From assembly GCA_019118345.1 (NCBI GenBank), contig DWZD01000051.1, positions 1,498 to 65,497 of the forward strand: DNA of 64,000 bases. Direction: 5' to 3'. The first letter of the stretch is position 1; every line of letters starts with the position of its first letter. The notes under the pieces were generated by a model, which had not been told where the DNA came from, searched no databases, and saw only the letters and a list, made by a program, of their open reading frames with translations. Below, one piece after another: positions 17,008 through 60,283 of the stretch. The DNA is from Candidatus Desulfovibrio intestinavium. GTDB taxonomy: Bacteria > Desulfobacterota > Desulfovibrionia > Desulfovibrionales > Desulfovibrionaceae. The translations under genes and the position numbers were made by a program.

Positions 17008-17012
17008 GCCGT

Positions 17013-44504: not shown

Positions 44505-46886
44505 ATGCGCGGCCTCTCCGCTTTGTTGTCGTCCGTTGCCGCCTGTCTGCCGCGCTGGTTGCGGCGGGCGGCGGGCGCTATCGGTCTGACGGCGGCCTGC
44601 GGTCTGCTGGCATATGGCCTGCTGGGCCTGTGCGCGCCGCCGCCCCTGCTGGAGGGCGTGCCCTTTGGCCGTCTGGTGCTGGATGCGGAGGGGGGCATGC
44701 TGCGCCTTGCGCTGGCCGGGGATCAGGCCTACCGCCTGCGCGTCCCGCTGGATGCCGTCGCCCCGGAGGCGGTCAGGGCGACGCTGGCCTATGAGGATAG
44801 GCATTTTTTCGCCCATCCCGGGATCAATCCCCTTTCTCTGCTGCGGGCGGCTTGGGTCACCTATGCGGGCGGGGGGCGGCGCATGGGCGCGTCCACCATC
44901 ACCATGCAGGTGGCCCGCCTGCGCCTCGGCCTGAATACGACCGGCATTGCCGGAAAGCTGCGGCAGATCTGGGCGGCCCTGCTGCTGGAACGGCATTACG
45001 GCAAGCAGGAGATTCTGGAAGCCTATTTCAATCTTGCGCCCTACGGCGGCAACATAGAGGGCATCGAAGCCGCCGCGCGCATCTACTTCGGCAAGCCCGC
45101 CGCGCAGCTGACTGCGCTGGAAAGCCATGCGCTGGCCGTCATTCCGCAGAATCCCGTCCACCGCCATCCCCTGCATGGCCGCGACTTTGCGGCGGCGCGC
45201 GCCCGGCTGGAAGGCCTGCTGGCGGCGGAGGACGGCTCCGCCGGCGGCGCACAGCCTCTGGCCCTGCCGCCCCTGCGGGTGCGCTCTCCGGCGCATTTGC
45301 CCTTTGGTGCGCCCCATGTCTGCGCGGAACTGCTGGCCGATGCCGCCGCGCCGGATGCGCGGGGCGTCATTGCCGCCACCATCGAGCCGGATGCGCAGCG
45401 GCTGCTGGAGGATCAGCTGTCCGCCCTCACGGCCCGGGGGCGCGTCCGGGGCATCCGCAATGCGGCGGCCCTGCTGCTGCGGGCCTCGGACATGCGGGTC
45501 TGCGCCCTGGCCGGTTCCGCCGATTTCCTTGATGCGGCCATCGACGGGCAGGTGGACGGCAGCCGTGCCCGCCGCTCGCCCGGTTCGACGCTCAAGCCCT
45601 TCATTTATGCCCTGGCGCTGGAGCAGGGCCTGATCCATCCCATGACCCTGCTCATGGACAGTCCGCGCTCCTTTGGCGGCTATGATCCGGAAAATTTCGA
45701 CAAGGGCTTTCGCGGCCCCCTGCCTGCCCATGAGGCGCTCAAGGCCAGCCGCAACCTGCCCGCCATTGCGCTGGCGGAACGGCTGGCCGCGCCGGGGCTG
45801 TACGGCTTTTTGCGGCAGGCGGGCGTGGCCCTGCCCAGGACGCCGGAGCATTACGGGCTGGCCCTGGTGCTGGGCGGGGCCGAGGTCAGCATGCGGGAAC
45901 TGGCGGGCCTGTATGCCATGCTGCTCAATCAGGGCCTGTGGCAGCCGTTGCGCCTGCGCCGCGATGCGCCCGTTGTGGCGCCGCGCCGCCTGCTCTCGCC
46001 GGAAAGCGCCTATGTGACCCTGCGCATGCTGGAACGGGATGACCTGATCCTGCCCACCCGCCACGGGCCGCTGCCCCTGCGCTGCAAGACGGGCACGTCC
46101 AACGGCTTCCGGGATGCCTGGACGGCGGGGATCGTCGGGGAGTATGTGCTGGTGGTCTGGGTGGGCAATTTCGACAATCGTCCCAACCCCTATCTTGTGG
46201 GCGGGGAAGTGGCGTTGCCGCTTTTCCGGGATACGGCACGCGCTCTGGCGGCCCTGCGTCCGCTGCGCGATCCCCTGCCTGCCCGGCGGGCGGGCCTGAA
46301 CGTGACGGAAATTCCCGTGTGCACCGCCACCGGGGACGTGGACGTTTCCCGCTGTGCCGAAACCACGCAAAGTCTGTTCATTCCCGGGGTGTCCCCGTTG
46401 CGCGACAGCGGCATCCTGCGGCCCATCCTCATCGACAAGGCCACGGGCCTGCGGGCCTGCGAAGCGCGCGAGGGCGAGACCGAGGAACGCTATTGGGAGT
46501 TCTGGCCGTCAGATGCCCGCGAGCTTTTTGCCCGGGCGGGCATCCACAAGCCCCTGCCGCCGGACTGGCTGCCGCAGTGCCGCCGTCAGTGCGCCGAGGC
46601 CTCCCTCGCGCCCGCAGGCAGGCCGCCGCGCATCCTGCTGCCCAAGAAGCATGTGGCATATTATCAAACGCTTTCCGGCGACAATCGCAGCCTGCCGCTG
46701 CTGGCCGCCGCCGAGCCGGACGTGCGGCGCATTCACTGGTTTGCGGGCAGAACCTATCTGGGCAGCGCGGCGCCGGGCGAAGTGCTGCTCTGGCGGCCTT
46801 CGAGCGCCGGGATGGTGGACATTCTGGCCGTGGATGATCTGGGGCGCAGCGCGCGGCAGACATGCCGCATCCGCCTGACGCCCTAG
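44505..46886 (+). CDS. pbpC: Penicillin-binding protein 1C (glycosyltransferase/transpeptidase)
   Basis: The GT51 motifs are RATLAYEDRHFFAHPGINPLSLLRA and GASTITMQVARL. The transpeptidase motifs are SPGSTLKPF (SxxK) and KTGTS. There is also a C-terminal PbpC-specific domain. GAGGTAA RBS. Confidence 0.93.
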   Translation: MRGLSALLSSVAACLPRWLRRAAGAIGLTAACGLLAYGLLGLCAPPPLLEGVPFGRLVLDAEGGMLRLALAGDQAYRLRVPLDAVAPEAVRATLAYEDRHFFAHPGINPLSLLRAAWVTYAGGGRRMGASTITMQVARLRLGLNTTGIAGKLRQIWAALLLERHYGKQEILEAYFNLAPYGGNIEGIEAAARIYFGKPAAQLTALESHALAVIPQNPVHRHPLHGRDFAAARARLEGLLAAEDGSAGGAQPLALPPLRVRSPAHLPFGAPHVCAELLADAAAPDARGVIAATIEPDAQRLLEDQLSALTARGRVRGIRNAAALLLRASDMRVCALAGSADFLDAAIDGQVDGSRARRSPGSTLKPFIYALALEQGLIHPMTLLMDSPRSFGGYDPENFDKGFRGPLPAHEALKASRNLPAIALAERLAAPGLYGFLRQAGVALPRTPEHYGLALVLGGAEVSMRELAGLYAMLLNQGLWQPLRLRRDAPVVAPRRLLSPESAYVTLRMLERDDLILPTRHGPLPLRCKTGTSNGFRDAWTAGIVGEYVLVVWVGNFDNRPNPYLVGGEVALPLFRDTARALAALRPLRDPLPARRAGLNVTEIPVCTATGDVDVSRCAETTQSLFIPGVSPLRDSGILRPILIDKATGLRACEAREGETEERYWEFWPSDARELFARAGIHKPLPPDWLPQCRRQCAEASLAPAGRPPRILLPKKHVAYYQTLSGDNRSLPLLAAAEPDVRRIHWFAGRTYLGSAAPGEVLLWRPSSAGMVDILAVDDLGRSARQTCRIRLTP

Positions 46887-47096: not shown

Positions 47097-47873
47097 TCAA
47101 CTGAAGCCGTAGTAGTCCACATAGCTGACCAGATCCTCCACCGTATCCCGCAAGGGGCCGAGCATGGCGTTCACGAAGCCGTCAATGGGGCCATAAATGG
47201 TCTGCGTGACGCTCACGGCGTACTTGACCGGCACCTTTTCGCTCAGAATGGGAATGGCCAGCCCCTTGAGCGAGGGATAAAGCTCCCCGTCCATGACGGC
47301 ATATCCCCGCTTGCGCACTTCCTCCAGATCCCGCAGCAGCTGTTCCGGGCTGCTGGTCGTCTTTTCCGTGAAGGTGGCGAATTCCGTCCGCTGCAGGTAG
47401 GCGTTCAGATCCTTTTCCGGCAGATGGGCCAGAATGGCCTTGCCCAGGGCTGAACAATAGGCCGGCACTGATCGCCCGACGGAAAACTGGGCATAGCTGG
47501 AATTGGTGCTTTGCAGGCGGTAGACGATGTCCTTGCCGTTCCACATGCCGAGATTGCATATCCCGTTGTTGTCCTTGTTTTTCTTTGCCAGTTCATCCAG
47601 AAACTGGATGGCGATCTGATCAAAGTCGCGTTTGGGCAGGATGCCCTTGCCGAGTTTGGACAGTTTGTCGGTGAGCACATAGTTGTTGTGCTGATCCTTG
47701 TCCACATAGCCGTGCAGGCGCAGGGTACTCAGAAAACGATAGCTGGCGCTTTTCTGCATGCCCATGCGTTTGGCCACGCTGGTGACGGTGACGTGCTTCT
47801 CCTCAACGAGCAGCTCCAGGAGTTGCAGGCCTTTTTCAAATGTTTGCACATAGATGACGCTGTTCTTCCCCAT
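47097..47873 (-). CDS. IclR-family transcriptional regulator
   Basis: N-terminal wHTH (VQTFEKGLQLLELLVEEKHVTVTSVAKRMGMQKSASYRFLSTLRLHGYV) and a C-terminal IclR effector domain (GRSVPAYCSALGKAILAHL...YAVMDGELYPSLKGLAIPI). Divergent from the GRE operon. Confidence 0.9.
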   Translation of the reverse strand: MGKNSVIYVQTFEKGLQLLELLVEEKHVTVTSVAKRMGMQKSASYRFLSTLRLHGYVDKDQHNNYVLTDKLSKLGKGILPKRDFDQIAIQFLDELAKKNKDNNGICNLGMWNGKDIVYRLQSTNSSYAQFSVGRSVPAYCSALGKAILAHLPEKDLNAYLQRTEFATFTEKTTSSPEQLLRDLEEVRKRGYAVMDGELYPSLKGLAIPILSEKVPVKYAVSVTQTIYGPIDGFVNAMLGPLRDTVEDLVSYVDYYGFS

Positions 47874-47952
47874 TACGAAATCCTTTTCCCCTCAGGATGA
47901 CGATTTTCCTAGCAACAAGATAGCCTGTTTTGCTTTTCACGTCGATAAATCC

Positions 47953-47981
47953 TTGACAAAGTGTGGCCTGTAAACAATACT
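47953..47981 (+). promoter_or_regulatory. Candidate sigma70 promoter of the cupin-SDR-GRE operon
   Basis: TTGACA (47953-47958), 17-bp spacer, AATACT (47976-47981). Confidence 0.45.
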
Positions 47982-47988
47982 AGAAAAA

Positions 47989-48007
47989 AATTCACGATAT
48001 GTGAATT
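47989..48007. promoter_or_regulatory. Perfect inverted repeat between the -10 element and RBS (candidate operator)
   Basis: AATTCAC-gatat-GTGAATT, with 7-bp perfect arms, 12 nt upstream of the cupin ATG and overlapping the predicted transcription start region. Confidence 0.5.
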
Positions 48008-48019
48008 AAGGAGGCTCCC

Positions 48020-48379
48020 ATGCAAAAGGTGATTCAGCTCGGCGACAAGGGAACCCCGACCGAAGTCGTGGAGGCCCTCGCGCCCAACCCGCTGTCGGGC
48101 CATCCCGTCACCCGTGTGCGGCGGCAGTTTGTGCATCCCGCGGGGCTGGTGAACGCCGGCATCTGGGAGTGTGCCGCGGGCAGCTTCGAAATTCCCGCCC
48201 ACCCCAGCCATGAGATGTGCACCATCCTGGAAGGGGAGGCCGTCATCGAGCATGATGACGGCAGCCGTCTGCCGGTGAAGGCCGGGGACAGCATTCTCAT
48301 CCCCAAGGGGACGCGCAACATCTGGCATGTGTCCGAGCGCATCAGAAAAATATTCATGTGTTGTTTTGAACCGGAGTAG
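48020..48379 (+). CDS. Cupin_3 (DUF861)-type small cupin protein
   Basis: 119 aa. ...AGIWECAAGSFEIPAHPSHEMCTILEGEAVIEHDDGSRLPVKAGDSILIPKG... matches the GIWEC..G.F....HE.c.iLEG pattern of the EutQ/ureidoglycine-hydrolase-like cupin_3 family. AAGGAGG RBS. Confidence 0.8.
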   Translation: MQKVIQLGDKGTPTEVVEALAPNPLSGHPVTRVRRQFVHPAGLVNAGIWECAAGSFEIPAHPSHEMCTILEGEAVIEHDDGSRLPVKAGDSILIPKGTRNIWHVSERIRKIFMCCFEPE

Positions 48380-48411
48380 CCGCAAGCGCGGACAATCACG
48401 AGGAGGAAGCA

Positions 48412-49227
48412 ATGAGTCAGGTACCCGTAGCCGTAGTGACCGGCGGCAGCCGCGGCATCGGCAAGGCCGTGGCCGATGAATGCATGAGCCTTGGTTTCCG
48501 TGTGGTGCTGGTGGCGCGCAGCGCGCGCAATCTGGAACAGGCCTGCCGGGAGTTGAGCGAAAAACACGCCCCGGATGCGGCCCACCAGCCCGACATGGTG
48601 TCCGTGGATGTGGCGGATGTGGCGGCCGTCAAGGCGGCGGCCGACGACATCATCCGTCGGCACGGTCATGTGGATCTTCTGTTCAATGCCGCCGGCATCA
48701 GCATTCCCGGCACCTTTGAACTGGATGCGGAAACCTTTACCCGCCTGTTTGAAATCAACCTCCGCGCGCCCTTCCTTTTTATGCAAGCCTTTCTGCCGCA
48801 CATGGCGGCGCAGGGCGGCGGGCGCGTGGTCAACGTGGCGTCGCGCAACGGCAAGGTGGCCGTGGCGGGACTGGGCGGCTATTCGGCCTCAAAATACGGT
48901 CTGGTGGGTCTGAGCGAATCCGCCTACCGGGCCTATGCGGCGCAGGGCATCAGCATCACGACCATCTGTCCCGGCTGGGTCAATACGGAGATGGCCGCCA
49001 ATGAAGGGCCGTCCCTCAGGCCCGAGGAAATGGTGCAGCCGGAAGATGTGGCCAAGACCCTGCGCTGGCTGCTGAGCATGAGTCCGTCCGTGCGGGTCAT
49101 GGAAGTCATGCTCGAATGCGCCAAGGATGTGGAACGCCGGGCCTCGGTGGAACTGGCCAAGCTGTATGCCCTCAAGCACCGGCATGAAGATGAATTCAGC
49201 ACCCTGGACGTACAGGCGGAATCATGA
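48412..49227 (+). CDS. Short-chain dehydrogenase/reductase (classical SDR)
   Basis: TGGSRGIGKAV cofactor motif, NAAG, and the catalytic S...YSASK tetrad region. 271 aa. GAGGAGGAAG RBS. Confidence 0.92.
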   Translation: MSQVPVAVVTGGSRGIGKAVADECMSLGFRVVLVARSARNLEQACRELSEKHAPDAAHQPDMVSVDVADVAAVKAAADDIIRRHGHVDLLFNAAGISIPGTFELDAETFTRLFEINLRAPFLFMQAFLPHMAAQGGGRVVNVASRNGKVAVAGLGGYSASKYGLVGLSESAYRAYAAQGISITTICPGWVNTEMAANEGPSLRPEEMVQPEDVAKTLRWLLSMSPSVRVMEVMLECAKDVERRASVELAKLYALKHRHEDEFSTLDVQAES

Positions 49228-50138
49228 AGGCCGTCATAGAGAATATTCAGCATTTCAGCCTGCATGACGGGCCGGGTACGCGAACCACGGTCTTTTTCAA
49301 GGGCTGTCCCCTCCGCTGCGCCTGGTGTTCCAATCCCACCACGCAGAATTTCGGGGTCGAACTCCTGCAAAAGGCGGACAAGTGCCTGCGCTGCGGCGCC
49401 TGCGCCGCGGTCTGCCCGCATCAGGCCGTGAGCATGGTTCCCGGCTCGCTGCCGCGCATCGACAGAAGCCGTTGCGTCAATTGCGGCCTGTGCACCGCCT
49501 CCTGTCCCGGCAAGGCGCTGGTCATGGCCGGGCAGGAATACACGCTGGAAAGCGTGGTGACCAATATTGCGGCCGATATGCTCTTTTACCGCAATTCCGG
49601 CGGCGGGGTCACCCTGTCCGGCGGCGAGGTGCTGGCCCAGAGCGACTTTGCCGTGGCGCTCTGCGAGGAATGTCACGCCCTCGGCATCCAGACGGCCGCA
49701 GAAACCTCGGGCTATGCGCCCTACGAGAATCTGCGCCGCCTGTCGTCGGTGACGGATATTCTGTTCATGGACATCAAGCATGCGGACAACGCCGAACACA
49801 AGCGGCTCACGGGCATGGACAATGCGCATATCCTCGACAATTTCGCCCGACTGCTCCGGGACAGGGTGGAGCCGGTTCATGTGCGGCTGCCGCTGATCCC
49901 GGGCTGCAACGACAGCGACGACCATCTGGCCGCCTATGCGGCGCTGCTGTCGGGCATGGAAGGGAATTTTGATCTGGAGGTGCTGCCCTATCACCGTCTC
50001 GGCAAGAACAAATACGACATGCTGGGCCGGGAGTATGCCCTCGGGGATACCCCTCCGCTTGAGGAAGAACGGGTCGCCCGGGCGGTGTCCCTGCTGCGCG
50101 AGGGCCTCGGGCGCATTCCCGTCCTGTGTACGGCCTGA
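49224..50138 (+). CDS. Glycyl-radical enzyme activating enzyme (radical SAM, with two auxiliary ferredoxin-type clusters)
   Basis: HDGPGTRTTVFFKGCPLRCAWCSNP (CX3CX2C), followed by CLRCGACAAVCP and CVNCGLCTASCP. The ATGA overlaps the SDR stop. 304 aa. Confidence 0.95.
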   Translation: MKAVIENIQHFSLHDGPGTRTTVFFKGCPLRCAWCSNPTTQNFGVELLQKADKCLRCGACAAVCPHQAVSMVPGSLPRIDRSRCVNCGLCTASCPGKALVMAGQEYTLESVVTNIAADMLFYRNSGGGVTLSGGEVLAQSDFAVALCEECHALGIQTAAETSGYAPYENLRRLSSVTDILFMDIKHADNAEHKRLTGMDNAHILDNFARLLRDRVEPVHVRLPLIPGCNDSDDHLAAYAALLSGMEGNFDLEVLPYHRLGKNKYDMLGREYALGDTPPLEEERVARAVSLLREGLGRIPVLCTA

Positions 50139-50188
50139 CCGCTGGAACGAACAAACCTGTCATGAGCAACGTTTCTGGAGGAACAATC

Positions 50189-52573
50189 ATGGCTCTTACC
50201 GAAGAGGCGCGTCTTGATCGCGTCATGAAGCTGAAGTCCCAGTTCTTTTCACATCGCCCCAGCGTCTGCATTGAAGGCGCGCTGTCCAAGACCGAGGTGT
50301 TCAAGGCGACCGAAAGCGAACCCATGATCATCCGCCGCGCCAAGGCCTTCAAGCGGCATTGCGAAACCAAGACCATCACCATCCAGCCCCATGAGCTTAT
50401 CGTGGGCAATGCGGGCGCAGTGGCCCGCAGCATCCATGTGAACCCGGAATTGTCCAACAACTGGTTCTATGACGAGCTGGACACCATGAGCACCCGGCCG
50501 CAGGATCCCTACCAGATCACCGAGGAGCAAAAGCGCCTGTACCGTGAGGTCGTCTATCCCTACTGGAAGGGCAAGACCCTGCGCGACTACTGGAATGCCC
50601 GCGCCCCCGAGGATGTGCGCGAACTGGTGGCCGTGGGCGGCGTGTGCGACAATGACGTGAAGATCGAATGCACGCCCGGCGACATGGTGCCGGCGTTTCA
50701 GCAGATCATTCTTCCGCTGGGCTTCGACGGCATCCGCCGGCAGGCGGAAGAACATCTGAAGGATCTGGACTTCAACCAGATCGAAAACTTCGCCCGCCGG
50801 GACTTCTGGCGTTCCGTCATCATCTGCTGCGAGGGCTTTTCCGCGCTCTGCGAGCGGCATGCCGACATGGCCCGCGCGCTTCAGGTGGGCGCCGACGAGC
50901 AGCGCCGCGAGGATCTGCGCCGCATCGAGGCGGCCTGCCGGGCCATTGCCCACAATCCGCCCAGCACCTTCCACGAGGCCGTGCAGCTGGTCTACTTCGT
51001 CTTTGTGGGCCTGTTCATCGAGGGCAATGCCGGCGGCTATTCGCCGGGCCTGCTCGACCAGTACCTGCTGCCCTATTATGAAAAGGCGCAGGCCGACGGC
51101 ATGAGCGACGAGGAGATTCTCGAGATCATCGAATGCTTCTATGTCAAGACCGGCGAACAAATCTGGTACTGGAACGAGCCGGCCGCCCGGCACTATTCGG
51201 GCTACTGCGCCTTCCAGAACATCGCCCTCGGCGGTCTGGACACCTACGGGCGGGATGCCGTCAATCCGCTGACCTATCTCATGCTTCAGGCGGGCATCGA
51301 CGTGCAGATGGTGCAGCCCTCGCTCTCCGTGCGCATCAGCAAGAAGAATCCCGAAGCCTTCTTCCTCAAGGTGGCCGAACTGGTGCAGACCGGCTCCGGC
51401 TTCCCGGCGGTGTTCAGTGATGACGTGGGCTACAAGATGCTGCTCAAGAAGGGCATCCCCGCCCACCTTGCCCGCGACTGGGCGCCCATCGGCTGCGTGG
51501 AAGCCCAGCTGGCCGGGCGGCACTATCAGTGGAGTTCCGCGGGCCATTACAATCTGGGCAGCGCCGTGGAATTTGCCATGACCAACGGCATCCACCTGCA
51601 AAGCGGCAAGAGGCTTGGCATCGAAACCGGCGATCCGGCCACCTTCACGACCTTCGAGCAGTTCAAGGAAGCGCTCTTTGCCCAGCTGCGCCACCTGCTG
51701 CATCAGTTCTCCGTATCGCAGAATACGCTGGAAGAACTGCATTATCAGTATCTGCCCAATCCCGTGGCCTCCATGTTCACCGCCGGCTGCATGGAAAAGG
51801 GCCTTGACCTCACCCACGGCGGCGCGGAATTCAATACCGGCCCCGGCATGAACGGCAACGGCGTGGGCGACTTCGTGGATTCCCTGGCTGCGGTCAAGAA
51901 GATCATCTTTGACGAAAAGCGCTTCAGCATGGCCGATCTGGCCGCGGCCATCAAGGCCGACTTCAAGGGCTATGAGGCCCTGCAACGCGCCCTTGAGGAA
52001 GATGCGCCCAAGTGGGGCAACAATGACCCTGAAGCCGACGAGGCCATGATCGCCATGTGCGACGTGATCATCCGCGAAATCGACACCTATCGCGGCAAGC
52101 TCGGCAATCACAAGCTGCCCGCGCTCTATCCCGTGTCCTCCAACGTGCCGCAGGGCATGGCCGTGGCGGCCCTGCCGTCGGGCCGCAATGCGGGCAAGCC
52201 GCTGGCCGACGGCTGCTCGCCCTCGCAGGGCCGCGACCGCCTTGGCCCCACCGCCATTTTGCAATCGCTCGGCAAGCTGCCCCACGAAAGCATTGACGGC
52301 GGCACCCTGCTGAACATCAAGTTCACGCCGCAGGTCATTCAGGGCAAGGAGGGCCGTGCCCGCATTTCGGCCTTCCTCAAGACCTTCCTTGACCTTGATG
52401 TGTTCCATGTGCAGTTTAACGTGGTCAGCCACGAAATCCTGCGCTGCGCCCAGAAGAATCCTGAGGAGTACAAGAGTCTGCTGGTGCGTGTGGCGGGCTA
52501 CAGCGCTTACTTTGTGGAGCTGAGCAAGGAAATTCAGGAAGACATCCTGAGCCGCACGGCGCACGAACTCTAA
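50189..52573 (+). CDS. Glycyl radical enzyme of the 1,2-eliminase (dehydratase/lyase) type, substrate unknown
   Basis: 794 aa from the ATG 50189 (GGAGGA RBS). The Cys loop is WAPIGCVEAQLAG (Cys436/Glu438 by my count; TGC at 51494). The glycyl radical motif is LLVRVAGYSAYFVEL (Gly770; GGC at 52496). The conserved LGIETGDP segment is present. There is no CC dyad, so this is not a pyruvate formate-lyase. Confidence 0.93.
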   Translation: MALTEEARLDRVMKLKSQFFSHRPSVCIEGALSKTEVFKATESEPMIIRRAKAFKRHCETKTITIQPHELIVGNAGAVARSIHVNPELSNNWFYDELDTMSTRPQDPYQITEEQKRLYREVVYPYWKGKTLRDYWNARAPEDVRELVAVGGVCDNDVKIECTPGDMVPAFQQIILPLGFDGIRRQAEEHLKDLDFNQIENFARRDFWRSVIICCEGFSALCERHADMARALQVGADEQRREDLRRIEAACRAIAHNPPSTFHEAVQLVYFVFVGLFIEGNAGGYSPGLLDQYLLPYYEKAQADGMSDEEILEIIECFYVKTGEQIWYWNEPAARHYSGYCAFQNIALGGLDTYGRDAVNPLTYLMLQAGIDVQMVQPSLSVRISKKNPEAFFLKVAELVQTGSGFPAVFSDDVGYKMLLKKGIPAHLARDWAPIGCVEAQLAGRHYQWSSAGHYNLGSAVEFAMTNGIHLQSGKRLGIETGDPATFTTFEQFKEALFAQLRHLLHQFSVSQNTLEELHYQYLPNPVASMFTAGCMEKGLDLTHGGAEFNTGPGMNGNGVGDFVDSLAAVKKIIFDEKRFSMADLAAAIKADFKGYEALQRALEEDAPKWGNNDPEADEAMIAMCDVIIREIDTYRGKLGNHKLPALYPVSSNVPQGMAVAALPSGRNAGKPLADGCSPSQGRDRLGPTAILQSLGKLPHESIDGGTLLNIKFTPQVIQGKEGRARISAFLKTFLDLDVFHVQFNVVSHEILRCAQKNPEEYKSLLVRVAGYSAYFVELSKEIQEDILSRTAHEL

Positions 52574-52580
52574 TGTATGC

Positions 52581-52604
52581 GGGCCGGGGCCTGTGCCCCG
52601 GCCC
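52581..52604 (+). other. Intercistronic perfect stem-loop between the GRE and binding-protein genes
   Basis: GGGCCGGGGC-ctgt-GCCCCGGCCC begins 8 nt after the GRE stop. No T-run follows, and the RBS GGAGG of the next gene follows at 52612. Confidence 0.6.
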
Positions 52605-52625
52605 CTGATCCCGGAGGCATGAACC

Positions 52626-53675
52626 ATGAAGCAAGTTTTTTTCTGGGCAGTGCTCTGCCTGCTGCTCGCCACGACGGCGCAGGCTGCCCCTGTAACGGTG
52701 AAAAGCGCCTGGCTTGACGAGTACGAGGCCCTGCCCGCCTGGTATGCCCATGAGCGGCAATGGGATGCGGAGGCGGGGATCAGCCTTGACATGCGCATCT
52801 ATCCTTCGGGCAAATTTCTCATGGACAACATGAGCAGCATCAAATGGGACGTGGCCGGTCTGGGCGGCGCGCCGGCCGTGCCGGGCATGCTGCGCAAGCA
52901 GGCCATTGTGGTGGGCATCGGTTCTGACGAGGCCGCTGCCAATGCCGTGTATGTGCGTCCTGACAGTCCGCTGCTGACGGCTTTTCAGCAAAAGCTGTCC
53001 GCCCGCGATTACGCCCGGCTGGTGACGGGCAAGGTGGTGCTCTGCCCGCGCGGCACGAGCGCGCACCAGCTGCTTCTGCTCTGGCTGGATCGCATGGGCC
53101 TCAGCGAGGAAAGCATCTCGCTCATGGATACGCCCCCCGCCGAAAGCGTGGGCAATCTCAGCGGCGGGGTGGGGGATATGGCCGTGCTCTGGTCGCCCGA
53201 GACCTGGGCCGCCGAGCAGGCCGGACTGAAAGCCCTGCTGACCGGCAAGGATCTCGGCCTCGTCCAGCCGACCCTGCTCATGGCCCGCTGCGACTATGCG
53301 GAAAAGAATCCCGACGGCGTCCGGGCCTTTCTGGCCTGCTATCTGCGGGCCGTCGAGGCCCTGCGGGCCATGCCCGCCGAGGAACTGGGCGCGCTGTACC
53401 GGCAGTTCCAGAAGGAATTTTGCGGCAAGGACATCAGCGCGGAACAGGCCGCGCGGGACGTGGCGAGCCATACGCTGTACCCCCTTGACCGACAGCGGGA
53501 GGTGCTTGCCTCGGAAGGGGAGCTGTTGACGTGGCTGGGGGATGTCATCGCCTTCCATGAGCGTACCGGCGAGCTCAGCCGGGGCCAGACGCGCGCCATC
53601 AGGGAACTGTCGCTGGTGCGGGCGGATTTTCTGCCCGCGTCTCTGCCCGAATCGCATGCCTCTGACGGGCAGTGA
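52626..53675 (+). CDS. Periplasmic substrate-binding protein of the NitT/TauT (SsuA/TauA/NMT1) ABC family; no cognate permease or ATPase nearby
   Basis: Signal peptide MKQVFFWAVLCLLLATTAQAA. The 349-aa protein has SsuA/TauA-like architecture (...IYPSGKFLMDNM.. WDVAGLGGAPAV ... VVLCPRGTSAHQLLLLWLDRMGL ... GDMAVLWSPE...). The family call rests on overall resemblance only. Confidence 0.7.
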   Translation: MKQVFFWAVLCLLLATTAQAAPVTVKSAWLDEYEALPAWYAHERQWDAEAGISLDMRIYPSGKFLMDNMSSIKWDVAGLGGAPAVPGMLRKQAIVVGIGSDEAAANAVYVRPDSPLLTAFQQKLSARDYARLVTGKVVLCPRGTSAHQLLLLWLDRMGLSEESISLMDTPPAESVGNLSGGVGDMAVLWSPETWAAEQAGLKALLTGKDLGLVQPTLLMARCDYAEKNPDGVRAFLACYLRAVEALRAMPAEELGALYRQFQKEFCGKDISAEQAARDVASHTLYPLDRQREVLASEGELLTWLGDVIAFHERTGELSRGQTRAIRELSLVRADFLPASLPESHASDGQ

Positions 53676-53761
53676 AAGCGGGCAGGCGGCCGTCGCGGCC
53701 TTTTGCCAAGCATTGATCTGAAACGCCGCCCGTAGTGCGCGGCAGGGAGAACGCTGATGCG

Positions 53762-53800
53762 GGGGAGCGGCTTTTTTGCCGTTCCCCCGTTCTGTTTGCG
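53762..53800 (+). terminator. Possible terminator of the GRE operon
   Basis: GGGGGAGCGGC-tttttt-GCCGTTCCCCC followed by GTTCTGTTTG. Confidence 0.4.
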
Positions 53801-53846
53801 TCTTCTGCCGGGGAGGCGGCAGGGGGAGATCGCGGCGGTATTATTG

Positions 53847-53891
53847 AGAAAGAAATGCAATTGTAATTTTTTTCACAATTTTTTTCTTTCT
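53847..53891. promoter_or_regulatory. 45-bp imperfect palindrome in an AT-rich spacer just upstream of the TRAP promoter (candidate regulator site)
   Basis: The outer arms are AGAAAGAAA (53847-53855) and TTTCTTTCT (53883-53891). The inner arms are AATTGTAA and TCACAATT, centred on a T7 run. It ends 13 bp before the -35 hexamer. Confidence 0.45.
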
Positions 53892-53904
53892 GCCCATAAA
53901 AGCC

Positions 53905-53933
53905 TTGACTCGTGAAAATCCCTTCTCTAAAAT
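53905..53933 (+). promoter_or_regulatory. Near-consensus sigma70 promoter for the TRAP operon
   Basis: TTGACT (53905-53910), 17-bp spacer, TAAAAT (53928-53933). It would give a ~130-nt AT-rich leader before dctP. Confidence 0.55.
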
Positions 53934-54070
53934 TTAAATTACATAAAACAAGTTTTATTAAATAGAACAAAGTGAGGGGGGGGGTGAAAAAAATTTTCAT
54001 TATTTCACTTGGGTAAGGTTCATATCTCCCGGAACTGGCCGGGGAAACAGGAAAATCAAAGGAGTGTCCC

Positions 54071-55096
54071 ATGAAGCTGTTGCAAACCATGATATGCACG
54101 CTTGCCGTGTGTGCCCTTGTTCTTGGCGGTCTGAGCGAATCGGTCAAGGCCGAACCCAAGGAAATCAAGCTGCTCTTCCCCGAACCCTTCAGCGCGGCCT
54201 CCTCCTATGCCGAAGGGCAGGCCGTGGGCATCTATTACGGCGCTCTGGACTTTTACATGCAGAACCATCCCGCCCTGCGTGGCAAGTTCAAGATGCGCTG
54301 GGTGGGCGACGTGGTGAAGTCCCCGGCCGACGCCCTCAATGCCGTGGCCACCGGGGCCGGGCAGATTACCTACACCCTGCCGCAGTTCATCGAACAGTTT
54401 GACCCCGATTGGCGCATCATCACCACGCCCGGCATGTTTGTGGACATGGCCCACTTCCTGCGCGCCATGAGTACGCCGGAATGGAAGGCCAAGCAGGAAA
54501 TGCTGGAAAAGAACTGCGGCTTCAAGATTCTCAAGTGGACGAACTCCATCGGGCACTTCTACCTCTGGACCAAGACCGGCCCGGCCGACACCCTCAAGGC
54601 CCTGCGCAACCAGAAGATCCGCTATGCCGGCCAGCAGTCCTATGCCGTGGCCTTCAACAAGCTGGGCCTCGTGGGCGTGGCGCTGCCCTATACCGAAGTG
54701 GTTTCCGCTCTGCAGACCAACATGATCGAAGGGCTGACCAACGACATTTTCGGCTACACCTATTACGATCTGCCGCGCCAGACCAAGTACATGCTGCCGG
54801 TTCCCTTCGGCTTCGGGCCGCAGGCGCTGGTGGTGAACGCGGAATGGTGGAACAACCTGCCCAAGGAGCAGCGCGACGCCATCAACTTCGTGGTGCAGTG
54901 CACGGACGTGCACCAGTACTTTGAAGCCGAGGAAAAGCGCATCCTCAAGTGGTGGGATGAAAACCCCGGCACCGAGCTGGTCAAGCTGACGCCTGAAGCG
55001 CGCGCCGAATGGGATGCCGCGCTGGCTGAAGCCGCCGCGGAATTCACCAAGGACGCCGATCCGGCCTTGCTCAAGGCCATTCGCGACAACAAGTAA
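54071..55096 (+). CDS. TRAP transporter substrate-binding protein (DctP family, divergent)
   Basis: Signal peptide MKLLQTMICTLAVCALVLGGLSESVKA. The 341-aa protein has DctP-like organisation, immediately followed by dctQ/dctM homologues. AAAGGAG RBS. Confidence 0.8.
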   Translation: MKLLQTMICTLAVCALVLGGLSESVKAEPKEIKLLFPEPFSAASSYAEGQAVGIYYGALDFYMQNHPALRGKFKMRWVGDVVKSPADALNAVATGAGQITYTLPQFIEQFDPDWRIITTPGMFVDMAHFLRAMSTPEWKAKQEMLEKNCGFKILKWTNSIGHFYLWTKTGPADTLKALRNQKIRYAGQQSYAVAFNKLGLVGVALPYTEVVSALQTNMIEGLTNDIFGYTYYDLPRQTKYMLPVPFGFGPQALVVNAEWWNNLPKEQRDAINFVVQCTDVHQYFEAEEKRILKWWDENPGTELVKLTPEARAEWDAALAEAAAEFTKDADPALLKAIRDNK

Positions 55097-55151
55097 GGAA
55101 TAACGGGGCCGGAGCCTCGGCTCCGGCCCGGCCGCAAGCCAGGGAGGCCGC

Positions 55152-55664
55152 ATGTCCGACCACACGACGACCCGTTACGAGCGCATCAAGCAGCGCTGGA
55201 TGGAATTCTGGGGACTGGTGTTTTTTCTGGGAGTGCTCATCAACTTTGCCGAAATCATCTGCCGCACCGTCTTTCATTTTTCCATTGACCTCATGTACGA
55301 CCTGCCCATCTGGCTGACCATCTGGGCGGTCATGATGCTGGCCGGCCCCATTCTGCTGGATGGGGAGCATGTTTCCGTGGATATGGTGCGCGACGCCGTG
55401 CACGGCAAGCCGCGCAAGTGCATCGAAATCATCAACTGTCTGGCGACCATTGCCTTCGGCGCGGTGGTGACCTGGAGCGGCTATATTTTCATTAGCCAGT
55501 GCTACCGCTTCAACATGAAGATTATCCGTTGCATCCCCGTCCCCCGCTGGATGGTGGAAATCTGCATTCCGCTGGGCATGGCCGTGTTCACCCTGTATGC
55601 CCTCATTCAGCTTGGCCGCGTGCTGCGCACCAATTACGACAAGAAGCCCGAAAACGGCGACTAG
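55152..55664 (+). CDS. TRAP transporter small permease (DctQ family)
   Basis: 170 aa with four TM helices, positioned between the DctP-like and DctM genes. GGGAGG RBS. Confidence 0.85.
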   Translation: MSDHTTTRYERIKQRWMEFWGLVFFLGVLINFAEIICRTVFHFSIDLMYDLPIWLTIWAVMMLAGPILLDGEHVSVDMVRDAVHGKPRKCIEIINCLATIAFGAVVTWSGYIFISQCYRFNMKIIRCIPVPRWMVEICIPLGMAVFTLYALIQLGRVLRTNYDKKPENGD

Positions 55665-55699
55665 ATTCTCACGCCTGTCGCATTGAACAAGGAGACGGC

Positions 55700-56983
55700 A
55701 TGGACACCACCACAATCCTTTCCCTGGCGTTGATCGTCCTCTTTTTCCTCATCGGCACGCCGCTGAGCGTCACCTTCAGTATCGGTTCCATCATCATCAT
55801 GATCCATACGATGGGCTTTCCCGTCGGCAATATTTCCCAGATTTTTTATACGACCATCAGCGGCTATCCCCTGCTGGCCATGCCGTTCTTCATCTTTGCG
55901 GGCAATGCCATCCTGTCCAGCGGCGGCATGGGCCATTTGCGCGACTTCATGAACCGTCTGGTCGGTCATCTGCCCGGCGGCATGGCCGTGGCCATCTGCA
56001 TCTTTGCCGCCTTTCTCGGTTCCATTTCCGGCTCCGCCACGGCCTGTCTGGCCATCATCGGCACCATCTTCGTGCCCATGCTGGCGGAATCCGGCTATTC
56101 CCGGGCCTTCGCATCCGGGCTGGCCGTGACCTCGGCCGGGCTGGGCGCGGTCATTCCGCCCAGCGTCTTCATGATCATTTTCGGCGCGAGCAATCGCATT
56201 TCCATTGCCGACCTGTTTGCCGCGGGCGTGGGGCCAGGCCTGCTGGCCGCCCTGCTCATGTGCGTGCTGACGGTGATCATCTCCCTGCGTCGCGGCTACT
56301 ACGGGGGAAAGAAGGCCAGCACGGCCGAACGGCTGGATGCCTTCCGCAAGGCCCTGCCCATTCTGCTCATGCCCATCATCGTGCTGGGCGGCATTTATTC
56401 CGGCATTTTCAGCCCCACGCAGGCGGCCTCGGTGGCCTGCGTCTATTCGCTCCTGCTCGGGGTGTTCATCTACAAGGGCATAACCTGGCGCGTCTTTCTC
56501 AATATGCTGGTGGAAACGGTGCGCCTGAGCAGCATGATTTATTTCCTCGTCATCGGCGGCGAACTGTTCGGGCGCGTGCTCGGCTATGTGGGCCTGCCGC
56601 AGATGATCAGCCAATGGGTCATCAACATGCACCTTGGCCCCACCTCCTTCCTCTTTGCGGTACAGGCGCTTCTGCTGGTCATGGGCTTTTTCTTCTCCTC
56701 CTTCCCGATGGTGGTCATCGTGCTGCCGCTCTTTTTGCCCAGCGTCATGGCGCTCGGCATTGACCCGGCCCTCTATGGCGCGCTGGCCGTGTTCTGCGCC
56801 ATCATCGGCGAAGTGACGCCGCCCATGGGGCCGCAGCTCTGGATCGCCGCGCCCATCTGCAAGGAGAAGATCGGCAACATCATGCGGGAATCCTGGGCCT
56901 TCCTCGGCGTGCAGGTGCTCACCCTGGGCATTGTCACCGTTTTTCCGCAGATTTCGCTGTTCCTCGTCAACCTCATGCGCTGA
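55700..56983 (+). CDS. TRAP transporter large permease (DctM family)
   Basis: 427 aa. MDTTTILSLALIVLFFLIGTPLSVTF..., ~12 TM helices, with typical DctM segments (GGMGHLRDFMNRLVGHLPGGMAVA, SGSATA, IPPS). AAGGAGA RBS. The ORF-track start at 55499 overlaps dctQ and is rejected. Confidence 0.92.
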   Translation: MDTTTILSLALIVLFFLIGTPLSVTFSIGSIIIMIHTMGFPVGNISQIFYTTISGYPLLAMPFFIFAGNAILSSGGMGHLRDFMNRLVGHLPGGMAVAICIFAAFLGSISGSATACLAIIGTIFVPMLAESGYSRAFASGLAVTSAGLGAVIPPSVFMIIFGASNRISIADLFAAGVGPGLLAALLMCVLTVIISLRRGYYGGKKASTAERLDAFRKALPILLMPIIVLGGIYSGIFSPTQAASVACVYSLLLGVFIYKGITWRVFLNMLVETVRLSSMIYFLVIGGELFGRVLGYVGLPQMISQWVINMHLGPTSFLFAVQALLLVMGFFFSSFPMVVIVLPLFLPSVMALGIDPALYGALAVFCAIIGEVTPPMGPQLWIAAPICKEKIGNIMRESWAFLGVQVLTLGIVTVFPQISLFLVNLMR

Positions 56984-57057
56984 CACGGCAGGCAGGCGCG
57001 GCTTGCGGGCCGCGTCGGCTGATGACGAGCATTCATTGACCCGGAAGGAGGAAGAAG

Positions 57058-58218
57058 ATGTCCAAGACCCTGCTTATCCTCGGACTCGGCGGCGTGGGCT
57101 GCTTTGCCGCCCACTTGGCGGCGCGCCTGCCCGGCCTGCATGTGGTGGTGGGCGATGTGCGTGAAGAACATGCGCGGCAGGTGGCCAACAGTCTGATCTC
57201 GGTCAATTTTTTCGAGGGGGCGGCGCAGCGCTTCCCCCGGGTGGATGCCGTGGGGCTGGACATGATGCGGCCGGAGGACATTGCCCGGGTACTGGAAACC
57301 TGGCGGCCGGACGTGATCTTCAACGCCACGACCCTGCTGTCGTGGTGGCATCTGCATCGCCTGCCCCATGCGCTGGCCCGCCGCATCTACTACGGCGATC
57401 CCGAAGGCTGCGGCCTGCGGCCCTGGGCGCCCGGTCATGGCGTGCTCCTGACCCATCTCATGCGGGTCGTGCGCGCCGTGCTGCCGCAAGCGCGGGTGGT
57501 CAACGTGTCCGGGCCGGACTATCTGCATGAGATGCTGGGCAAGGTGGGGCTGGCCCCGGATGTGGGCGTGGGCAATGTGGCCCTGCTGGAACCCATCCTG
57601 CGACGCATCGTGGCCGAAAAGCGAAACGTGCCGCCCGAAGCGCTGGACATCACCCTGGTGGGTCACCATTGCATGTGCATGCAGATTTTTCAGGAAGGCG
57701 CGCTGGCCCCGGAAATTCCCTTCCATCTCCGCATCGAGGAGGACAGGCGGGACATTACCGCCGAGCTGGATATCGACCGCGATCTCTGGGCGCGGGTTCC
57801 CGCCCATATGCCCCTGCTTTCGGAGGTCAATCAGCAATGCGTGGCGGCCTCGGCCCTCAGGATCATCCGGGCCATGCTCTACGATACCGGAGAGATCATG
57901 CATGCGCCGGGGCCGTGCGGCCTGCCCGCGGGCTGCCCGGTGCGGGTGGACGCTTCCGGCGTGAAGGTGGTCGTGCCGCCGGAACTGGGCCGGGAACGGA
58001 TGCTGCAAATCATGTACGAGGCCAACCGCCGTGAGGGCTTCGAGCCGACGGGCGAGGACGGCACGGTCACGGCCACGCCGCATTGCGCGGAGGTGGTTGA
58101 GGACGTTTTCGGCATCAGCTGGCGCTACCGGCGGTTCCGGCTGGAAGAAATGTTCGACGCCCATCAGGAAATGGCGGAGGCGTTCAGCCGGCTGCTGGCC
58201 CGCTATCCCGGAGCCTGA
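57058..58218 (+). CDS. Saccharopine-dehydrogenase-like NAD(P)-binding oxidoreductase
   Basis: N-terminal Rossmann LLILGLGGVGCFAAHLAARLPGLHVVVGDV, 386 aa. Overall it looks like the Sacchrp_dh / homospermidine-synthase-like superfamily; that family call is from memory. GGAAGGAGGAAG RBS. Last gene of the TRAP operon. Confidence 0.6.
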   Translation: MSKTLLILGLGGVGCFAAHLAARLPGLHVVVGDVREEHARQVANSLISVNFFEGAAQRFPRVDAVGLDMMRPEDIARVLETWRPDVIFNATTLLSWWHLHRLPHALARRIYYGDPEGCGLRPWAPGHGVLLTHLMRVVRAVLPQARVVNVSGPDYLHEMLGKVGLAPDVGVGNVALLEPILRRIVAEKRNVPPEALDITLVGHHCMCMQIFQEGALAPEIPFHLRIEEDRRDITAELDIDRDLWARVPAHMPLLSEVNQQCVAASALRIIRAMLYDTGEIMHAPGPCGLPAGCPVRVDASGVKVVVPPELGRERMLQIMYEANRREGFEPTGEDGTVTATPHCAEVVEDVFGISWRYRRFRLEEMFDAHQEMAEAFSRLLARYPGA

Positions 58219-58453: not shown

Positions 58454-60283
58454 CTAGCCCTTCTTCTTGGCGCCCGCCATCTGATAGCGCTTCTGGGCGG
58501 AAAGTTCCGTCTTGCGCAGGCGGATGGATTGCGGGGTCACTTCCACCAGCTCATCCTCGCGCACGAAGTGCAGGGCATGTTCGAGGGTCATTTTCTTCAC
58601 CGGGGTGAGGATGACGTTTTCATCCTTGCCTGCGGCGCGGAGGTTGGTGAGCTTCTTTTCCTTGGTGGCATTGACGTCGATGTCGTTGTCGCGGTTATGC
58701 TCGCCCACGATCATGCCCTCGTAGACCGGGTCGCCCGGCTCCACAAAGAGCGTGCCGCGCGGTTCGAGATTGAAGAGGGCATAGGCCACGGCGCTGCCTG
58801 CCCGGTCGGCCACGATGGAGCCGGTGAAGCGGGTGGGGAAGTCCCCGCGCCATTTCTCGTAGCCGTCCAGATAGGAATTCATGATGCCCGTGCCCTTGGT
58901 GTCGGTGAGAAATTCGTCGCGGTAGCCGATGAGGCCGCGCGAGGGCACGGTGAACTCCAGCCGCACGCGGCCGGTGCCGTTGTTGATGCAGTTGAGCATG
59001 CGGCCCTTGCGCTGGTTGAGCTTGTCCGTCACCACGCCCATGAAGTATTCGTCGCAGTCCACATAAAGGTGTTCAATGGGTTCGAGAGTCTTGCCGTTCC
59101 CGTCCTTCTTGAGGATGACCTCCGGGCGGCCCACGGACAGCTCGAAACCTTCGCGGCGCATGGTTTCGATGAGAATGGCCATCTGGAACTCGCCGCGCCC
59201 CTTGACGAGAAAGGCATCCTTGTCCGCCGTGTCTTCCAGCCGCACGGCCACGTTGCGCAGGCATTCCTTTTCCAGCCGATCCCGGATGGCGCGGCTCTGC
59301 ACGATCTTGCCCTCGCGTCCGGCCAGCGGCGAGGTGTTGATGCCGAAGCGCATGGCCACGGTGGGTTCGTCCACCCGGATGCGGGGCAGGGCGCGCGGAT
59401 TGTCGCGGGTGCAGATGGTGTCGCCGATGGTCACATCCTCGATGCCCGCCAGCACCACGATGTCGCCAGGCCCGGCGGATTCCACCTCGGCCAGCTGCAG
59501 GCCGTCATAGACCTGCAGCTTGGTGGCGCGCAGGGGGGAGGGCTGGCCGTTTTCGCCCATGCAGACGAGCGCTTCCTTGGCGTACACCGTGCCGTGCATG
59601 ATGCGGCCCACGGCCAGACGGCCCAGATAATCGGAATAGTCGAGATCGGCCACCAGCATCTGGAAGGGTTCGGCCGGGTCATGGGTCGGGCCGGGAATAT
59701 GCTTGAGAATGGTCTCGAACAGCGGGGAAAGATCCGTCCGCTCGTCCTCCAGACCGTACATGGCCACGCCCTCGCGGCCGATGGCGTAGAGCACGGGAAA
59801 TTCCAGCTGCTCGTCATTGGCCCCGAGATCGATGAAGAGATCATAGACCTCATTGAGCACTTCGTCGGGCCGGGCGTCCTTGCGGTCGATCTTGTTGACC
59901 ACCACCACCACGGGCAGGCCGGCTTCCAGCGTCTTCTTGAGCACGAAGCGGGTCTGCGGCAGGGGGCCTTCCGAGGCGTCCACCAGCAGGATGGCCCCGG
60001 TGGCCATGGACAGGGAGCGCTCCACCTCGCCGCCGAAATCGGCGTGGCCGGGCGTGTCGATGATGTTGATCTTCACGCCCTTCCAATGCACGGCGCAGTT
60101 CTTGGCGGCAATGGTGATGCCGCGTTCGCGTTCCAGATCCATCTTGTCCATGACGCGATCATCCACCTGCTGATCAGCGCGAAAGACGCCGCTCTGACGA
60201 AAGAGCGCATCCACCAGCGTGGTTTTGCCGTGATCGACGTGGGCGATGATGGCCACATTGCGAAGGGAGGTATTCTGTTCCAT
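58454..60283 (-). CDS. typA: Translational GTPase TypA/BipA
   Basis: [22 protein letters not shown]..., [19 protein letters not shown]. 609 aa with EF-G-like domains and the TypA C-terminal domain. Confidence 0.96.

Follow-up and report, generated by a model that had tools for sequence, protein, structure and literature searches.

A glycyl radical enzyme clade with a cupin partner in Desulfovibrionaceae: a candidate C-N lyase in an accessory catabolic island

Which small molecule is handled by a glycyl radical enzyme (GRE) whose neighbouring genes resemble those of no known GRE system? The question is raised by an ~11 kb block (47097-58218) in a 64,000 nt stretch of contig DWZD01000051.1 from Candidatus Desulfovibrio intestinavium (GCA_019118345.1), hereafter the window, which encodes a GRE, its activase, a cupin, a transporter and several further proteins between pbpC and typA. 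GRE eliminases in the gut produce trimethylamine from choline, sulfite and then H2S from isethionate, and dehydrate hydroxyproline, all with relevance for health. Many GRE clades are uncharacterised, and for the present one we infer a function from its pocket residues and gene contexts. The most recent overview lists six C-O, three C-S and one C-N eliminase (CutC) as well as three isomerases (June 2026 GRE review), and the gene set described here matches none of them. The best reading of the block is that of an accessory, transferable island for the catabolism of a small zwitterion taken up from outside, organised around a new clade of GRE 1,2-eliminase. That it is a novel eliminase island and not one of the characterised GRE systems is highly probable. 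That the enzyme would act as a C-N lyase releasing an amine from a zwitterionic hydroxy-ammonium acid is given a probability of roughly 0.45.

The GRE and its predicted pocket

Open reading frames (ORFs) of the window were annotated from an ORF list combined with Pfam and NCBIfam scans, and every gene that the initial annotation had named between pbpC and typA was recovered at its place (Table 2). The GRE combines a PFL-like barrel with a Gly_radical domain, and its activase is encoded immediately upstream. It carries the radical motif RVAGY with Gly770 and the Cys loop G435-C436-V437-E438, in which the CxE motif (Cys436, Glu438) is invariant throughout the clade. This motif is used by all GRE eliminases, and by this signature the enzyme is predicted to be of the 1,2-eliminase type, in line with the radical 1,2-elimination proposed at the outset. 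The best matches among solved structures are 8IOF and 8ID1, i.e. HpzG (E 4.5e-197) and HpyG (E ~1e-192), the N-methyl-cis-4-hydroxy-D- and L-proline dehydratases (June 2026 GRE review), and BLAST identities are 42% to HpzG, 40% to HpyG and 38% to Klebsiella pneumoniae CutC. The best-scoring NCBIfam equivalog is CutC (TIGR04394; 664.4 bits, cut-off 1050), and the scores for HpsG (NF048011; 592.8 bits, cut-off 1000), HypD (560.5 bits, cut-off 1100) and HpfG (NF048009; 522.4 bits, cut-off 1000) are likewise too low for assignment. The GRE therefore matches no characterised enzyme, as had been claimed: identity to known GREs is at most 42%, none exceeds 60%, and all curated equivalog cut-offs lie above its scores. 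With one genome taken per GTDB species, identity to the window GRE showed a gap from 68% to 42%. In the literature, we found no paper on a GRE-cupin system, a GRE carnitine lyase, new Bilophila GREs or this clade.

To compare active sites, sequences of HpzG, HpyG and CutC were rebuilt from HMMER alignments, and the numbering was calibrated on HpzG Cys435/Glu437. As a check on CutC, Tyr208, Asp216, Thr334, Phe389, Phe395, Cys489, Thr502 and Tyr506 all fell on the expected residue types. Equivalences among IslA, CutC and HypD were taken from PMC8473560.

Table 1. Pocket positions of the window GRE and equivalent residues of characterised GREs.
Window GRE	CutC	IslA	HypD	HpzG
Cys161		Arg189	Arg156	Arg157
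Asp165	Asp216	Gln193	His160	Glu161
Gly282 (then Gly283)	Thr334		Asp278	Ser279
Tyr336	Phe389		Ser334	Ser334
Phe342	Phe395		Phe340	
Ser449	Thr502			
His453	Tyr506			Glu452
Ser650			Thr645	

Only two of the seven choline-binding residues of CutC are kept, Asp216 as Asp165 and Phe395 as Phe342 (Table 1). These two hold the ammonium group of choline, Phe395 being the cation-pi residue (equivalences of PMC8473560). The segment following the Cys loop, GCVEAQLAGRHYQWSS, also resembles its counterpart in CutC, GCVEPQKSGRIYQWTS. The equivalent of Tyr208 is either Val157 or Ile159 depending on how a 2-residue indel is aligned. Judging from these alignments, the change of Thr334 to Gly282 would give room, and that of Phe389 to Tyr336 a hydrogen-bond donor, for an additional acid arm of the substrate. 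In common with CutC/CutD, the island thus encodes a CxE eliminase with equivalents of Asp216 and Phe395, a similar Cys-loop segment and an adjacent dedicated activase. Unlike CutC, the GRE shares only 38% identity with that enzyme, scores below the TIGR04394 cut-off of 1050 and is altered at Thr334, Phe389, Tyr506 and Tyr208, and the island has an obligate cupin partner and no microcompartment genes. Choline, moreover, lacks the acid group that is implied here by the importers.

The pockets of other eliminases are not retained. The sulfonate-binding triad of IslA, IseG and HpsG (Arg189, Gln193 and Arg678 in IslA) is absent, with Cys161 and Asp165 at its first two positions and no Arg in the β8 residues 643-652, the third position falling on Leu646 when mapped by offset. 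The general acid His160 and the amine ligand Asp278 of HypD correspond to Asp165 and Gly282. Residues common to HpyG and HpzG (Arg157/158, Glu161/162, Ser334 and CGCVETN) are replaced by Cys161, Asp165, Tyr336 and IGCVEAQ; these positions were chosen as shared by both enzymes, not as established substrate contacts. The pocket signature of the window GRE does not vary among relatives between 94% and 64% identity and hardly varies at 55-58%.

A constant core with lineage-specific additions

The proteins of the window were compared by tblastn with all fetched loci, and 172 loci entered the counts for GRE, cupin and tripartite ATP-independent periplasmic (TRAP) transporter genes. The nine-gene set of IclR regulator, cupin, short-chain dehydrogenase/reductase (SDR), activase, GRE, SsuA-like binding protein and DctPQM occurs in about 10-12 Desulfovibrionaceae lineages and in at least five gene orders, and is complete in nine GTDB species representatives. 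GREs of these lineages are 84-94% identical to that of the window in Desulfovibrio spp., 80-81% in Bilophila spp. and 70-76% in Mailhella and other Desulfovibrionaceae, and an IclR gene is found at most orthologous loci. The neighbourhood is thus conserved in other Desulfovibrionaceae, sulfide-producing gut bacteria such as Bilophila wadsworthia among them, rather than confined to a single genome, and its conserved composition means that it is not a chance juxtaposition, the alternative that the initial annotation had considered.

The cupin gene is present at nearly all adequately flanked loci whose GRE is at least 55% identical to that of the window and at none of 127 loci with a GRE below 44%, and TRAP genes follow the same distribution across the 172 loci. 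Relatives at 55-64% GRE identity come from marine and other Desulfobacterota (L083, L085, L086, L087 and L088). What they retain is the GRE, activase and cupin together with DctPQM and a regulator of the GntR or IclR type; two loci are incomplete (no activase gene nearby in L085, no TRAP genes in L083). The SsuA-like binding protein is always absent from these five loci and the SDR usually so; the latter is conserved in Desulfovibrionaceae loci and missing from most marine relatives. These results show that the constant core, from gut Desulfovibrionaceae to marine Desulfobacterota, consists of GRE, activase, DUF861/EutQ-type cupin and importer, to which the Desulfovibrionaceae have added the IclR repressor, the SDR and the SsuA-like binding protein. 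It is the cupin rather than the SDR that constantly accompanies the GRE, a point that the initial annotation had missed. In the marine locus L087, two polysaccharide-deacetylase-family genes, two SDR genes and a Glt symporter gene (5883-9343) lie directly upstream of the GRE-activase-cupin-DctPQM genes, which hints at an N-acylated precursor in that lineage.

The cupin lacks the HxH metal motif; residues conserved in it are Glu65, Cys67, Glu71-Gly72, Gly89-Asp90, Pro95, Trp102 and Lys110. The AlphaFold2 model (pLDDT 78, core >85) is nearest to the DUF861 structures 3bcw (34% identity) and 3es4 and to the EutQ structures 2pyt and 4axo, and acetate-kinase activity has been reported for EutQ. A DddK-type metal-dependent lyase or an ectoine-synthase-like enzyme was rejected, given the missing metal motif and the lower rank of DddK among the structural matches. 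The SDR has its best PDB match in an uncharacterised Bacteroides thetaiotaomicron protein, 3nyw. A role as 3-hydroxybutyrate dehydrogenase was also rejected: Gln94, His144 and Lys152, which we take to be the carboxylate-binding residues of the Pseudomonas fragi enzyme, are Ser97, Asn146 and Leu154 here.

The 386-aa ORF at the end of the block had been called saccharopine-dehydrogenase-like, and C-N-cleaving chemistry had been drawn from this label. Neither withstood closer analysis. Its similarity to PF03435 is below threshold (18.6 bits, E 0.0024, cut-off 25.1) and covers only the N-terminal 85 residues, the Rossmann part; no Pfam match above threshold and no PDB sequence match was obtained; and its 20 homologues among 5.8 billion proteins are all unnamed and without a Pfam domain. 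The AlphaFold2 model (pLDDT 92.5) has lactate/malate dehydrogenase (LDH/MDH) as best Foldseek match (TM 0.56/0.67, ~16% identity). The protein belongs to an orphan family with a predicted LDH/MDH-like fold. It also lies outside the core: the gene was found only in a Desulfovibrio subgroup (L005, L006, L012, L017 and L018), where it always adjoins dctM, even in L018 in which the TRAP operon has moved, and the cluster versions of Bilophila, Mailhella and the marine relatives lack it. These distributions show it to be an add-on of the Desulfovibrio subgroup only.

DctP, DctQ and DctM are encoded together, as expected of a TRAP system, which supports the earlier view that the substrate is imported and anionic. 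DctP is only distantly related to all solved TRAP binding proteins (closest E 1e-13), too distantly for its ligand to be assigned by homology. The secreted SsuA-like binding protein matches SsuA (2x26) and TauA (6ssy) best and has no ATP-binding cassette (ABC) partner in the window. Its description as an orphan does not hold for Bilophila wadsworthia, in which a complete NitT/TauT-type ABC importer including this protein replaces TRAP (L016, L084 and L096). The B. wadsworthia loci contain in addition a second, paralogous GRE at 60% identity, whose pocket differs mainly by Asp165Glu, while other Bilophila species combine TRAP with a different GRE paralogue at 55% identity. In the draft genome of B. 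wadsworthia ATCC 49260 (L016), the paralogous GRE is split into overlapping ORFs (6532-8109 and 8096-8896) by either a frameshift or an error of assembly. The metagenome contig L084 has the same gene intact (799 aa).

Methylamine genes recur near the clade. MttB/MtbB-type genes accompany five of ~25 non-redundant loci of the clade; among the 127 loci whose GREs are more distant, none has them (Fisher's test, 8e-5, on loci without full independence). In Mailhella (L015; GRE 70% identical, same pocket), the genes for activase, GRE, a 178-aa ORF, cupin, a BCCT transporter and an MttB-family protein follow one another, and a gene for an iron-containing alcohol dehydrogenase lies next on the opposite strand; the MttB-family gene (15886-17406, + strand) contains an in-frame TAG (…YIAGG*TDSN…). 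In a metagenome-assembled genome (MAG) of Eubacteriaceae (L089), with Glu165 in a GRE of 48% identity, the genes run BCCT, MtbB, corrinoid protein, sigma-54 activator, GRE and activase. Its MtbB gene (6114-7508, + strand) was uncalled by the gene caller, likewise contains an in-frame TAG (…CMDGL*VGYGD…) and exceeds the dimethylamine methyltransferase equivalog cut-off (473.6 bits vs 369.1). The TRAP-less Desulforhopalus locus L083 (GRE 56%, Asp165) is surrounded by genes for an MttB homologue of the type without pyrrolysine (non-Pyl), two corrinoid proteins, URO-D-type methyltransferases and a pterin-binding protein. MttB-family genes lie on both sides of the GRE in L097 (52%) and one lies nearby in L090 (50%), and these too are non-Pyl. 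In Desulforhopalus sp. 52FAK, an RVT_1 reverse-transcriptase ORF (L083, 8245-8910, - strand), possibly a remnant of a group II intron or retron, is located between the MttB-family gene and the GRE gene.

Asp165 accordingly occurs with a TAG-containing MttB (trimethylamine) and Glu165 with a TAG-containing MtbB (dimethylamine), a pairing which suggests that the residue may distinguish a quaternary from a tertiary amine leaving group. The importer varies among orthologous loci with the same pocket, being TRAP in most, a NitT/TauT-type ABC system in B. wadsworthia and BCCT in Mailhella L015. TRAP transporters need a carboxylate or sulfonate, BCCT transporters take onium compounds, and NitT/TauT-type ABC importers take taurine-like zwitterions. 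The substrate range shared by these systems would be compounds bearing both an onium group and an acid. Bilophila is known to use a Pyl-MttB for trimethylamine; its GREs have been named 'CutC/CutD' by annotation alone (PMC7593587).

Proposed reaction and competing explanations

The range common to the importers, together with the kept Asp/Phe pair, Gly282 and Tyr336, points most simply to a zwitterionic substrate that carries an acid and an onium group and whose hydroxyl neighbours the C-N bond. As the obvious abundant candidate in gut and sediments, L-carnitine was chosen, and remains a tentative choice with the odds against it. In the reaction that we propose, the activase would install a radical on Gly770, and the thiyl radical of Cys436 would abstract the carbinol hydrogen, at C3 in carnitine. 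Abstraction at a secondary carbinol has a precedent in HpsG (June 2026 GRE review). Glu438 would take the hydroxyl proton, and the methylated amine held by Asp165 and Phe342 would leave as in CutC, which for carnitine means trimethylamine from C4; quenching of the radical would yield acetoacetate. Reduction or interconversion of the keto and hydroxy acids would fall to the SDR and, at loci that have it, to the LDH/MDH-like enzyme. The Glu165 paralogue of Bilophila may accept an analogue with fewer methyl groups, for example norcarnitine, giving dimethylamine. In its most specific form, the proposal is that of a first carnitine trimethylamine-lyase, converting L-carnitine to trimethylamine and acetoacetate in one oxygen-independent step, with the Glu165 paralogue acting on demethylated analogues and the DUF861 cupin as a new obligatory partner; we consider this form doubtful. 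Known anaerobic routes lead from carnitine via cai to gamma-butyrobetaine and the bbu cluster, or by MtcB demethylation to norcarnitine. They share the gut setting and the proposed substrate pool, but employ CoA-dependent and flavin enzymes or corrinoid methyltransferases, and involve neither a GRE nor direct cleavage of carnitine.

Several observations weigh against an amine lyase or, more narrowly, against carnitine. Tyr208 and Tyr506 of CutC are not kept (Ile or Val, and His453), and the GRE is overall marginally closer to the dehydratases HpzG and HpyG than to CutC. Genes for MttB, a corrinoid protein or BCCT are missing from the window itself. The MttB of Mailhella L015 scores 446 bits, below the trimethylamine methyltransferase equivalog cut-off of 525, and the non-Pyl type accounts for three of the five linked genes, which speaks for quaternary-amine demethylation rather than use of released trimethylamine. 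The correlation of Asp165 and Glu165 with the two methylamine contexts consists of one locus each. No gene of the cluster would activate acetoacetate to its coenzyme A ester, and the SDR, without the carboxylate-binding residues of 3-hydroxybutyrate dehydrogenase, lends no support to acetoacetate as product. The obligatory cupin is without a step in the carnitine route. Finally, the SsuA/TauA-like binding protein and the restriction to sulfite and sulfate reducers fit a sulfonate equally well.

A sulfonate was in fact one half of the substrate guess in the initial annotation, the other being an N-substituted acid. Cleavage of a C-S bond or dehydration of a hydroxy-sulfonate would feed sulfite respiration, as in the IslA/IseG and HpsG pathways. 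Like these, the present enzyme is a GRE eliminase of Bilophila and Desulfovibrio encoded at an accessory catabolic locus, and TRAP import of isethionate and dihydroxypropanesulfonate (DHPS) is a feature of the IseG and HpsG pathways. The cluster version with SDR and SsuA/TauA-like binding protein occurs in Desulfovibrionaceae only, among them Bilophila, a sulfonate specialist; the binding protein has SsuA and TauA as best matches, and B. wadsworthia has a NitT/TauT-type ABC importer at the locus. The pocket tells otherwise, since Arg189 and Gln193 are replaced by Cys161 and Asp165 with no Arg in β8 (643-652), and the acidic Asp165 disfavours a sulfonate leaving group. There are also no sulfoacetaldehyde or DHPS dehydrogenase partners, the scores for HpsG (593 bits) and HpfG (522 bits) are far below their cut-offs of 1000, and in marine relatives the module without the SsuA-like binding protein adjoins methylamine genes. 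With the triad missing, a sulfonate lyase was rejected as the best reading, and we regard organosulfonate degradation as rather improbable; the N-substituted half of the guess fits both the pocket and the methylamine contexts. D-cysteinolate was set aside, as it is already explained by a different, non-GRE cluster (PMC12814064).

The structural matches raise the question of a dehydratase of the HypD/HpyG/HpzG type, acting on another N-methylated or cyclic hydroxy-imino acid such as a trans isomer of N-methyl-4-hydroxyproline or a hydroxyproline-betaine derivative, with reduction of the iminium product by the SDR. HpzG and HpyG are the closest solved structures, have the same length and the CxE motif, and share the theme of methylated amino-acid catabolism. 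The non-Pyl MttB genes of L083, L097 and L090 would be in keeping with a betaine that is demethylated ahead of the GRE reaction, the Bilophila paralogues recall the stereoisomer pair HpyG/HpzG, and the SDR could be the reductase. Yet identity is only 40-42%, and nearly all residues shared by the two dehydratases are changed, including Ser279-Ser280 to Gly-Gly and Glu/Asp452 to His453. The TAG-containing MttB and MtbB neighbours, furthermore, imply free trimethylamine or dimethylamine, which a dehydratase does not release, and the cluster contains no gene of the pyrroline-5-carboxylate reductase type. We judge this explanation unlikely, if a serious one. By analogy with KdgF/KduI/KduD under an IclR/KdgR-type regulator, one may also imagine dehydration of a nitrogen-free hydroxy acid (a sugar acid, glycerate or diol-acid), with the cupin as isomerase and the SDR as keto-reductase. 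The combination of cupin, SDR and TRAP is common in uronate-type clusters, the IclR regulator has a sub-threshold KdgR match, and many solved TRAP binding proteins, all distant matches, bind sugar acids. This is the least probable of the explanations considered: the pocket keeps the cation-binding Asp/Phe pair and has Asp165, not His, at the general-acid site of the glycerol and hydroxyproline dehydratases, the cupin is of the DUF861/EutQ and not of the KdgF/KduI type, and the methylamine and BCCT contexts would be left unexplained. An amine lyase for a hydroxy-ammonium acid is our preferred reading.

Layout, borders and significance of the island

The genes of the block form two operons behind a divergent regulator gene (Table 2). 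The SDR and activase genes overlap by 4 nt, the likely GRE start is the ATG at 50189 preceded by a GGAGG site, and the activase has CX3CX2C at residues 28-35 and two ferredoxin-like cluster motifs. Operon 2 had been credited with a promoter of its own. A TTGACT-17-TAAAAT site is indeed present in the intergenic region, whereas the number of promoter-like sites across the search (4 found, 2.9 expected) is not above chance; the two sites of the block are suggestive for their intergenic position alone. A palindrome, TTCAC-N5-GTGAA, is located between the -10 element and the ribosome-binding site of the first promoter and at the same position in L006 and L017. It occurs once in the window, with ~1 copy expected by chance, and is weak evidence for a putative IclR operator. 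An operator common to both promoters was rejected, as the palindrome is present at the first only. An AT-rich segment of ~190 bp before dctP (53840-54030), within an otherwise 60-70% GC region, holds several short inverted repeats such as GTGAAAAAAATTTTCA and is a possible regulatory region.

Table 2. Features of the block and its flanks (window coordinates).
Feature	Position	Strand	Evidence or remark
PbpC, left flank	44505..46886	+	
IclR-family regulator	47097..47873	-	PF09339 + PF01614; divergent from operon 1
Promoter-like TTGACA-17-AATACT upstream of cupin gene	47953..47981	+	consensus match only
Palindrome TTCAC-N5-GTGAA, candidate IclR operator	47991..48005	.	
Cupin_3, DUF861/EutQ-type, 119 aa	48020..48379	+	PF05899, 64.7 bits vs cut-off 23.5
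Classical SDR, 271 aa	48412..49227	+	PF00106, 181.6 bits
GRE activase, radical SAM, 304 aa	49224..50138	+	TIGR02494, 333.8 bits vs cut-off 174
GRE, 794 aa, predicted 1,2-eliminase type	50189..52573	+	PF02901, 625.6 bits; PF01228, 108.9 bits
Secreted NMT1/SsuA/TauA-like binding protein	52626..53675	+	PF13379, TIGR01728; signal peptide
Terminator-like hairpin closing operon 1	53759..53790	+	13-bp stem, 10 GC pairs
Promoter-like TTGACT-17-TAAAAT upstream of dctP	53905..53933	+	consensus match only
DctP, TRAP solute-binding subunit	54071..55096	+	PF03480, NF037995
DctQ, TRAP small membrane subunit	55152..55664	+	PF04290
DctM, TRAP large membrane subunit, 427 aa	55700..56983	+	PF06808; TIGR00786, 343 bits; ATG behind AAGGAG
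386-aa orphan NAD(P)-Rossmann ORF, predicted LDH/MDH-like fold	57058..58218	+	
TypA, right flank	58454..60283	-	TIGR01394, 893 bits

The accessory nature of the block, also part of the initial annotation, was confirmed by comparison with three uncultured Desulfovibrio MAGs (L005, L006 and L017), whose GREs are 94% identical to that of the window. Nucleotide homology detected by blastn (83-85% identity) runs from 47097-47101 to 58181-58207, i.e. over the limits of the block, and outside these limits the window gave no blastn alignment with the three loci. In L005, the core context differs from pbpC/typA: the block is flanked by genes for a class II tRNA synthetase, PfkB and a CheV-like protein on one side and for FliR, an amino-acid kinase and GltX on the other. 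Among hallmarks of mobile elements, tRNA and integrase genes were looked for; no tRNA gene was found in the window and no integrase gene in the L005 flanks. GC content falls from 0.70 to 0.55-0.63 at the block. GC at third codon positions, at 0.76-0.83 in island genes and 0.83-0.85 in the flanks, is not atypical, and composition was therefore rejected as evidence of horizontal transfer; the case for an accessory block of foreign origin rests on synteny.

The right edge of the island is marked by a GC-rich hairpin, AACATTCCGGCGC…GCGCCGGAATGTT (58376-58425), preceded by an A8 run and resembling a terminator for typA on the minus strand. On the left, directly upstream of the PbpC gene, lies a gene for an alpha-2-macroglobulin (1857 aa; MG and bait-region domains; 38859-44432, + strand), a known pairing. 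The sole Rfam match in the window is a 6S/SsrS RNA gene (18706-18882, - strand; 97 bits, gathering score 46.4).

The clade is common in gut metagenomes, where the two GRE clusters of B. wadsworthia comprise 901 and 1099 member sequences; P0050, the Bilophila paralogue, is listed in 222 index blocks. If the proposed reaction is correct, the enzyme would join CutC as the second GRE that cleaves a C-N bond, and dietary carnitine would have a third microbial route to the precursor of trimethylamine N-oxide, in gut Desulfovibrionaceae including B. wadsworthia. With carnitine-like substrates, it would represent an uncounted source of trimethylamine or dimethylamine, linked to the pyrrolysine-dependent use of methylamines in the same organisms. 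Whatever the substrate, the module of GRE, cupin and importer is a defined target and provides the first functional context for DUF861 cupins.

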